From Escherichia coli (GTDB lineage Bacteria; Pseudomonadota; Gammaproteobacteria; Enterobacterales; Enterobacteriaceae): a DNA stretch of 273 nucleotides. The translations under genes and the position numbers were made by a program. The DNA lies in NCBI RefSeq assembly GCF_003334335.1, contig NZ_QOWQ01000229.1. One strand, given 5' to 3'. Below the pieces are notes generated by a model. That model was not told the DNA's origin and did not search any database. It was given only the letters and a program-made list of their open reading frames with translations. Below, piece after piece: positions 19 through 273 of this stretch. Positions within the stretch are counted from its first letter, which is position 1. Each line of letters begins with the position of its first letter.

Positions 19-177
19 ATGCGCCGCCTGAACCACCAGGCTATATCTGCCACTCATTGTTGTGAGTGTGGCGATCCCATAGATGAGCGAAGACGCCTGG
101 CCGTTCAGGGTTGTCGGACTTGTGCAAGTTGCCAGGAGGATCTGGAGCTTATCAGTAAACAGAGAGGTTCGAAGTGA
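19..177 (+). CDS. TraR/DksA family C4-type zinc-finger protein (small phage/plasmid-type transcription factor), 52 aa if started at ATG 19
   Basis: Manual translation of ATG(19-21) to TGA(175-177) gives MRRLNHQAISATHCCECGDPIDERRRLAVQGCRTCASCQEDLELISKQRGSK. The motif C14-x-x-C17-G-D-P-I ... C35-x-x-C38-Q aligns position by position with the F-plasmid TraR zinc ribbon (CEACGNPIPEARRKIFPGVTLCVECQ, recalled from memory). No in-frame stop between 19 and 175. The reading frame is also open upstream to position 1, so the true start could lie beyond the window; ATG 19 is the first in-window start and sits 2 nt after a TAA in another frame. Confidence 0.8.
   Translation: MRRLNHQAISATHCCECGDPIDERRRLAVQGCRTCASCQEDLELISKQRGSK
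161..167 (+). promoter_or_regulatory. Shine-Dalgarno-like ribosome binding site for the downstream ORF, embedded in the 3' end of the zinc-finger CDS
   Basis: AGAGAGG at 161-167, purine-rich and partly complementary to the 16S anti-SD, with 6-nt spacing to GTG 174. Confidence 0.5.
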
Positions 178-273
178 GCGAAATTAACTATCAGGAACTG
201 CGTGAAAAGGCAGAGAAAGCAACTAAAGGAAGCTACATCGTAGGGCATACATCTGTTAACCAGCACGGCAATT
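174..273 (+). CDS. Hypothetical protein, 5' portion only (continues beyond window); N-terminus tentatively resembles Ead/Ea22-like prophage proteins
   Basis: GTG at 174-176 overlaps the upstream TGA stop (GTGA) and lies 6 nt downstream of AGAGAGG (161-167). The frame is open for 33 codons to the window edge: VSEINYQELREKAEKATKGSYIVGHTSVNQHGN. There is a stop at 156-158 in this frame upstream, so GTG 174 is the first possible start, and there is no in-frame ATG within the window. The Ea22-like assignment rests on recalled N-terminal similarity (QALRE.AEKAT-type openings) and is not verified. Confidence 0.55.
   Translation, partial: MSEINYQELREKAEKATKGSYIVGHTSVNQHGN

Follow-up and report, generated by a model that had tools for sequence, protein, structure and literature searches.

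The DNA analysed here, a window of 273 nt, matches a segment of an E. coli SCU-104 prophage (locus L001) with 100% identity; its identity to 933W, VT2-Sakai and many more Stx phages is 99.3%. In SCU-104 the window is flanked upstream by cIII, kil, gam, bet and exo and downstream by xis and int, neighbours that place it within a lambdoid (Stx-type) prophage, in the exo-xis part of that prophage's leftward early (pL) operon. The window covers the junction of orf73 and ea22, two genes that lie side by side in lambda and in many Stx phages. The PGAP annotation of SCU-104 ends a TraR/DksA-family CDS at window position 177 and starts an ead/Ea22-like CDS at 174. NCBI PGAP, the lambda record and the Stx-phage record all set the boundaries exactly as we read them: the GTG at 174 is the annotated ea22 start in SCU-104, in Stx phage ST2-8624 and in lambda, and one Stx phage record (NC_049922) carries a ribosome_binding_site at 161-168. 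The lambda junction has the same gene pair, the same 4-nt GTGA overlap and an identical AGAGAGGTTCGAAGTGAGCGAAATTAAC, and lambda Orf73 is 97.3% identical to the zinc-finger protein of the window. Lambda Ea22, in contrast, has 182 aa, whereas the Ea22 of the window is of the Stx-phage type, with 271 aa (...REKAEKATKGSYIVGH...), and diverges from it after the first ~10-16 residues; mosaicism of Ea22 has already been described (PMC10834534). The feature is the lambda orf73/ea22 junction with a Stx-type ea22 allele, and its genes, boundaries and ribosome-binding site are already in the public annotation. Its parts, in window coordinates, are the following.

1..177, plus strand: 3' two-thirds of orf73, encoding a TraR/DksA-family C4 zinc-finger protein of 73 aa (PGAP CDS, lambda identity, PHROG 54)
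156..158, plus strand: TAA in the ea22 frame, the 5' limit of the ea22 ORF (frame-3 translation ...AYQ*TERFEVSEINYQ)
161..168, plus strand: Shine-Dalgarno-like AGAGAGGT for ea22 (duplex energy, NC_049922 annotation, invariance in 84 loci)
174..176, plus strand: GTG start codon of ea22 (three annotations, Pfam and PHROG alignment, the same GTGAGCGAAATTAAC elsewhere)
175..177, plus strand: TGA stop codon of orf73, overlapping the GTG by 2 nt within the shared 4-nt GTGA (sequence, PGAP annotation)
174..273, plus strand: first 33 codons of ea22 (Ead/Ea22-like), the gene continuing past the window (annotation, Pfam)
185..187, plus strand: TAA in the third frame, inside ATTAAC, which ends the upstream ORFs of other genomes with a 14-nt overlap

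Positions 161-180 read AGAGAGGTTCGAAGTGAGCG, and direct reading of the sequence bears out all of the coordinates in the earlier note: AGAGAGG at 161-167, a 6-nt spacer at 168-173, GTG at 174-176 and TGA at 175-177. The TGA closes a frame-1 ORF (19..177) and at the GTG a frame-3 ORF begins, which continues past the window end. A GTGA is uninformative when taken alone, since three of the four bases that can stand before TGA give ATG, GTG or TTG. It is the limit of the ORF, the Ead_Ea22 match, the Shine-Dalgarno (SD) motif and existing annotation that establish this one as a genuine gene boundary. The junction is an ordinary and already annotated one, of the class of operon genes that overlap by 4 nt (the -4 class). 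On the minus strand an ORF of 53 codons with a GTG start (window 105-266) spans the junction; it figures in no record's annotation, faces two conserved coding frames and is probably spurious.

The orf73 CDS starts 45 nt before the window (PGAP; L001 5956-6177, i.e. window -44..177) and encodes 73 aa; the ATG at 19 is not its start, being the internal Met22. The translated product has a C4 zinc finger (CECG ... CASC), matches PHROG 54, 'DksA-like zinc-finger protein', with E = 3.8e-25, and scores 54.8 bits against TIGR02419, where the cutoff is 59.7. The frame carries a coding signature, with 14 of the 20 variable columns in the alignment of the fetched loci falling at codon position 3. The protein begins MADLIDSAS and has both of the acidic residues, D3 and D6, whose codons lie before the window (L001 5956-6000); the D3N and D6N variants of lambda Orf73 lose activity (PMC9239242). 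Lambda Orf73 has been characterised experimentally: in vitro, and without Ea22, the purified protein both binds RNA polymerase and controls transcription, and Orf73 raises phage yield ~4-fold (PMC9239242). According to a second-hand statement in the same paper, it is highly expressed after induction. Just upstream of orf73, ~100 nt before the window (L001 5878-5905), there is a terminator-like hairpin, AGGGAGCTACAGGCTCCTT, followed by a T-run. It matches a terminator predicted upstream of orf73 in PMC4195576, and it overlaps the promoter p1 (-35 TCATCA, -10 TTTTATTAT) predicted in that work. In view of this hairpin and p1, orf73-ea22 may be regulated separately, as a sub-unit of the pL operon.

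The ea22 ORF has 271 codons in SCU-104. Residues 2-129 of its product align to positions 1-121 of the 139 in the Pfam model Ead_Ea22 (PF13935; E = 3.1e-31), and several PHROG profiles align to it from their position 1. No start before GTG174 is possible, because of the in-frame TAA at 156-158, and the next in-frame ATG, GTG or TTG lies ~48 codons downstream. In a pattern scan for GTGAGCGAAATTAAC that excluded the orf73 context we found 27 viral contigs, 25 of which encode ea22-like genes; in all 25 of these a purine-rich SD-like motif, mostly GGAGG, stands just upstream of the GTG. That the same GTGAGCGAAATTAAC start serves 25 ea22-like genes in other contexts indicates that the GTG start belongs to ea22 itself, and GTG174 is very probably the true ea22 start. 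Counting codon phase downstream of the junction gave 29, 27 and 26 variable columns over the three codon positions, which is uninformative for the ea22 frame because the variation there is wholesale mosaic replacement; the coding nature of this frame was judged instead by the Pfam and PHROG matches. One could still suppose that the junction has been mis-called, with ea22 starting elsewhere or a frameshift fusing both frames into a single product. GTG is a less common start codon, and the literature we searched gave no N-terminal protein sequence of Ea22. Against such a mis-call, the TAA at 156-158 bars an earlier start, and a start ~48 codons later would remove an N-terminal segment that is conserved in the family. 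To enter the ea22 frame by a -1 shift, ribosomes would have to slip within 159-174, a stretch that lacks a slippery heptamer, and a +1 shift meets the TAA at 185-187 after four codons. The two TAA codons and the missing slippery site exclude an alternative start and an Orf73-Ea22 frameshift fusion, and we give a mis-called junction next to no credence.

The GAGGT of the SD sequence pairs with the 16S rRNA tail at 5-6 nt before the GTG. Its duplex with the anti-SD ACCUCCUUA has an energy of -7.2 kcal/mol, a value reached by only 5.6% of the 20-nt windows in the 12-kb locus and close to what is typical of the 22 gene starts there. In ea22's other contexts the SD is stronger, at -10.3 to -11.6 kcal/mol. 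The SD in the orf73 context lies within the orf73 codons Gln-Arg-Gly (CAG AGA GGT), and it is probably weaker because it must also encode these residues near the end of Orf73. The RNA around the start appears to be open: the predicted fold of 120-230 is no better than that of shuffled sequences (z = -0.37), so that no masking structure is predicted, and opening the region from -15 to +5 costs ~4.0 kcal/mol, a lower cost than for the median gene start in the locus. A structure masking the ea22 start was rejected on these two grounds, and coupling by unmasking is unlikely. With the initiation region unmasked, de novo initiation is to be expected as well, and any coupling would act by re-initiation. 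An Rfam scan for a known structured RNA at the junction gave a single hit, CRISPR-DR22 at 2-19, which is meaningless (16.6 bits, where the gathering threshold is 50).

The two genes are co-directional, both on the plus strand, and our scan from the orf73 start to the ea22 start detected no terminator-like site and no plus-strand promoter-like site. In lambda and in phi24B the orf73 and ea22 mRNA levels co-vary (PMC4195576). The two genes are on one transcript.

The overlap itself is conserved among the relatives of the window: in all 84 loci that have the junction core there is not one variable column at 148-180, and the downstream frame is that of a Pfam family. The refuting conditions named in the earlier note were, for the most part, not encountered. 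This invariance is only weak evidence of selection on the SD or the GTG, because the 84 loci are close relatives (orf73 97-100% identical) and because it persists without ea22; in 19 of the 84, where ea22 is deleted to a 5-codon stub, the block is equally invariant. The initial scan for related loci returned only such near-identical orf73 loci (97-100%) and says little on long-term conservation; the diversity considered below was drawn from a spread sample of E. coli matches, from phage tblastn and from the DNA-pattern scan. In an evenly spaced sample of the E. coli matches, homology to the window breaks at 140, 161, 167, 173, 190, 205 and ~220.

The synteny of the gene pair, by contrast with the overlap, is not conserved, and both orf73 and ea22 are found with other neighbours. 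A census of 5,426 complete E. coli genomes, in which the junction counts are lower bounds from megablast coverage and a genome may hold several prophages, gave these arrangements.

orf73 followed by ea22: at least 1,142 genomes
orf73 followed by a 5-codon ea22 stub: at least 828 genomes
orf73 followed by an ASCH gene (TGATG): at least 620 genomes
orf73 followed by a 47-nt gap and DUF4222: at least 1,614 genomes

Genome-level occurrences of orf73 without an intact ea22 thus number at least 3,062, against at least 1,142 with it, and intact ea22 is the partner of orf73 in roughly a quarter of the junction occurrences counted. Individual loci illustrate the range. In L087 orf73 is followed by the 5-codon stub and no gene. 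An ASCH-domain gene overlaps orf73 by 1 nt (TGATG) in L088 and L089; a 47-nt gap precedes DUF4222 in L090 and in phage SfI (L085); and in phage Flotzy (L086) another gene begins 6 nt after orf73. In phages 75/02 Stx and Stx1_111698 an unrelated gene of 94 aa comes next, with the SD and the GTGA kept. Among more distant TraR-like genes, that of a Yersinia P2-like phage overlaps an exonuclease gene by 4 nt, and that of a Vibrio phage overlaps a hypothetical gene to the same extent; those of a Klebsiella phage and a Pseudomonas phage have no overlap with the next gene.

Several of these variants have features of their own. The stub variant (VSEIN*; L087 2174-2191, equivalent to window 174-191) keeps orf73, the SD and the GTGA, and the next gene is an oppositely oriented hypothetical one. 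In 75/02 Stx and Stx1_111698 (L084 1880-2164; L124 from ~1416 onward) the orf73 homologue is 71-86% identical and keeps AGAGAGGTGTGAAGTGA, and the product of the 94-aa ORF that follows (VSIDTTITIDTALNTGLALLGYFYI...) looks, by sequence, like a small membrane protein. In the DUF4222 variant (L085, L090) a TGATGG at the orf73 stop opens an ORF of 12 codons in the 47-nt spacer, and this may be the relic of a former overlapping downstream gene.

For its part, ea22 is preceded elsewhere by at least seven further ORF families that are unrelated to one another. Three of these end at the TGA of GTGA (4-nt overlap) and four at the TAA of ATTAAC (14-nt overlap); in L115 the preceding ORF ends 18 nt short of the ea22 GTG. 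The upstream ORFs of the viral contigs are our own calls, and L093, L113 and L119 each have a second open frame as well. At the 5' end of ea22 (window 174-188; L091-L119) GTGAGCGAAATTAAC holds a TGA in the +1 frame and a TAA in the +2 frame. Eight unrelated families of upstream ORFs end at these stops, four of them overlapping ea22 by 4 nt and the other four by 14 nt. Some 20 nt before the GTG, the non-orf73 contexts L093-L114 have a conserved CGYAAAGGAGGCRRCCA with an SD of -11.6 kcal/mol, as against -7.2 in the window. Three unrelated upstream ORF families share a ...RKGG(N/G/K)Q tail because they share these ~20 nt of SD-bearing DNA. The region around the ea22 start has the character of a portable junction, with stops in both alternative frames no more than 14 nt from the start.

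Lambdoid phages exchange modules at gene junctions that have conserved short boundary ('linker') sequences. The orf73/ea22 junction resembles such boundaries in that homology breaks at it or within a few bases of it and that the same GTGA(GC) links orf73 with different genes on its downstream side, and ea22 with different ones on its upstream side. The portable ea22 start fits this classical picture, and recombination may be preferential at this sequence. A bolder reading would have the SD and GTGAGCGAAATTAAC selected as a 'universal docking' junction that maintains coupling through module shuffling and, in the orf73 context, fixes the ratio of the pro-lytic Orf73 to the pro-lysogenic Ea22. 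Since the upstream ORF, whatever its identity, ends within 14 nt of the ea22 start, termination-reinitiation coupling would survive such shuffling. We consider selection of this kind rather improbable.

How, then, is this junction to be interpreted? The earlier note took the 4-nt overlap as typical of co-translated and stoichiometrically linked genes, and as a hint that the two products function together. The coupling-type architecture is all there (co-directional genes, a 4-nt overlap and an internal SD at the right spacing), and the first part of this interpretation is supported; the stoichiometric link and the joint function are not. A case can be made that Orf73 and Ea22 act in fixed proportion, as a complex or a two-component module for which the overlap has been kept. 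Short overlaps in E. coli are enriched 4.5-fold for the subunits of heteromeric complexes, which make up 30.4% of such pairs (PMC10666635). The adjacency of the two genes in lambda and many Stx phages and the co-variation of their mRNAs (PMC4195576) point the same way, and an older report, as cited in PMC9239242, groups orf73 with ea22, ea8.5 and orf55 in blocking the initiation of host replication. The overlap is nonetheless generic: -4 is the commonest operon spacing in prokaryotes, ~70% of close E. coli pairs (-8 to +10 nt) are not complex subunits (PMC10666635), and five of the 21 adjacent pairs of this operon overlap by 4 nt (bet/exo, exo/DUF1317, DUF1317/next gene, orf73/ea22 and one further downstream). 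The absence of intact ea22 from most of the counted orf73 junctions, the seven other ORF families that precede ea22 and the orf73 end that leads with the same GTGA into the unrelated 94-aa gene of 75/02 Stx and Stx1_111698 all argue against a partnership. So does the biochemistry, in that purified Orf73 acts alone on RNA polymerase and increases the yield ~4-fold (PMC9239242), and full-length Ea22, purified alone, is exclusively tetrameric (PMC10834534). When ea22 is deleted, moreover, burst size goes up and lysogenisation goes down, contrary to the direction of Orf73 (PMC7093339), and the published burst-size effects of the two genes are opposite (PMC9239242, PMC7093339). Such a partnership is very unlikely, and the GTGA overlap, being the commonest kind of junction in such operons, is no sign that Orf73 and Ea22 function jointly.

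There remains the question of whether the overlap affects expression. Translational coupling of orf73 and ea22 appears plausible, although generic. Judging from the architecture, we think that a part of ea22 translation may come from ribosomes that have just finished orf73. Among native pairs with the -4/-1 overlap architecture, termination-reinitiation coupling was strict in 13 of 14, with or without an SD (PMC6728339), and coupling needs an overlap or a very short distance and falls steeply as distance grows (PMC10666635). Known coupled -4 pairs (E. coli trpB-trpA and the pairs of Huber et al.; PMC6728339, PMC10666635) are like orf73/ea22 in lying on the same strand and transcript, with an NTGA overlap and the downstream SD inside the upstream CDS. 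They differ in having an ATG start where ea22 has GTG; for orf73/ea22, moreover, coupling is predicted from the architecture, and the products of the pair give no sign of a complex. Our literature search turned up no published coupling test for the orf73-ea22 pair, and overlap, start-codon and coupling terms were absent from the exo-xis papers searched for them. The competing view is that ea22 is initiated independently, by de novo binding at its SD and GTG, the overlap being a passive by-product of genome compaction and boundary recombination that leaves expression unaffected. For this operon the SD is of ordinary strength (-7.2 kcal/mol) and the start region is accessible, with no significant predicted structure, so de novo initiation alone could suffice. 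The same ea22 start, besides, works behind many upstream ORFs, in L115 without any overlap at all, and one of the 14 overlapping pairs tested was not coupled (PMC6728339). What weighs on the other side is that the remaining 13 were strictly coupled, SD or no SD, and that the steep fall-off with distance implies re-initiation by terminating ribosomes at stop/start overlaps (PMC10666635); a weak GTG and a weaker SD in the orf73 context also fit some reliance on re-initiation. We therefore regard purely independent initiation as possible and somewhat doubtful.

The reading that we favour, and hold to be likely, is that of a one-transcript orf73-ea22 junction at which ea22 is translated from GTG174 both by de novo and by re-initiating ribosomes. 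Some ribosomes would bind de novo at the moderately strong, unmasked SD at 161-168; others would end orf73 at the UGA at 175-177, step back one base and re-initiate on the GUG. The GTG of ea22 is the sole non-ATG start among the 22 CDSs of the locus, and this start and its weaker SD leave room for such a contribution; that re-initiation takes part, and to what extent, is something we infer. The overlap would then be generic tight packing and a mosaic module boundary, and no mark of partnership.

These results confirm that ea22 starts at the annotated GTG, and how far orf73 truly extends. They also counsel caution, in that a 4-nt overlap in a phage early operon should be read as probable co-translation, and not as a partnership of the products. 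Coupling at orf73/ea22 would be a modest refinement of a known system. If it is real, it might help to explain the relative amounts of Orf73, which raises the lytic yield, and Ea22, which favours lysogeny, in lambda and the Shiga-toxin phages.
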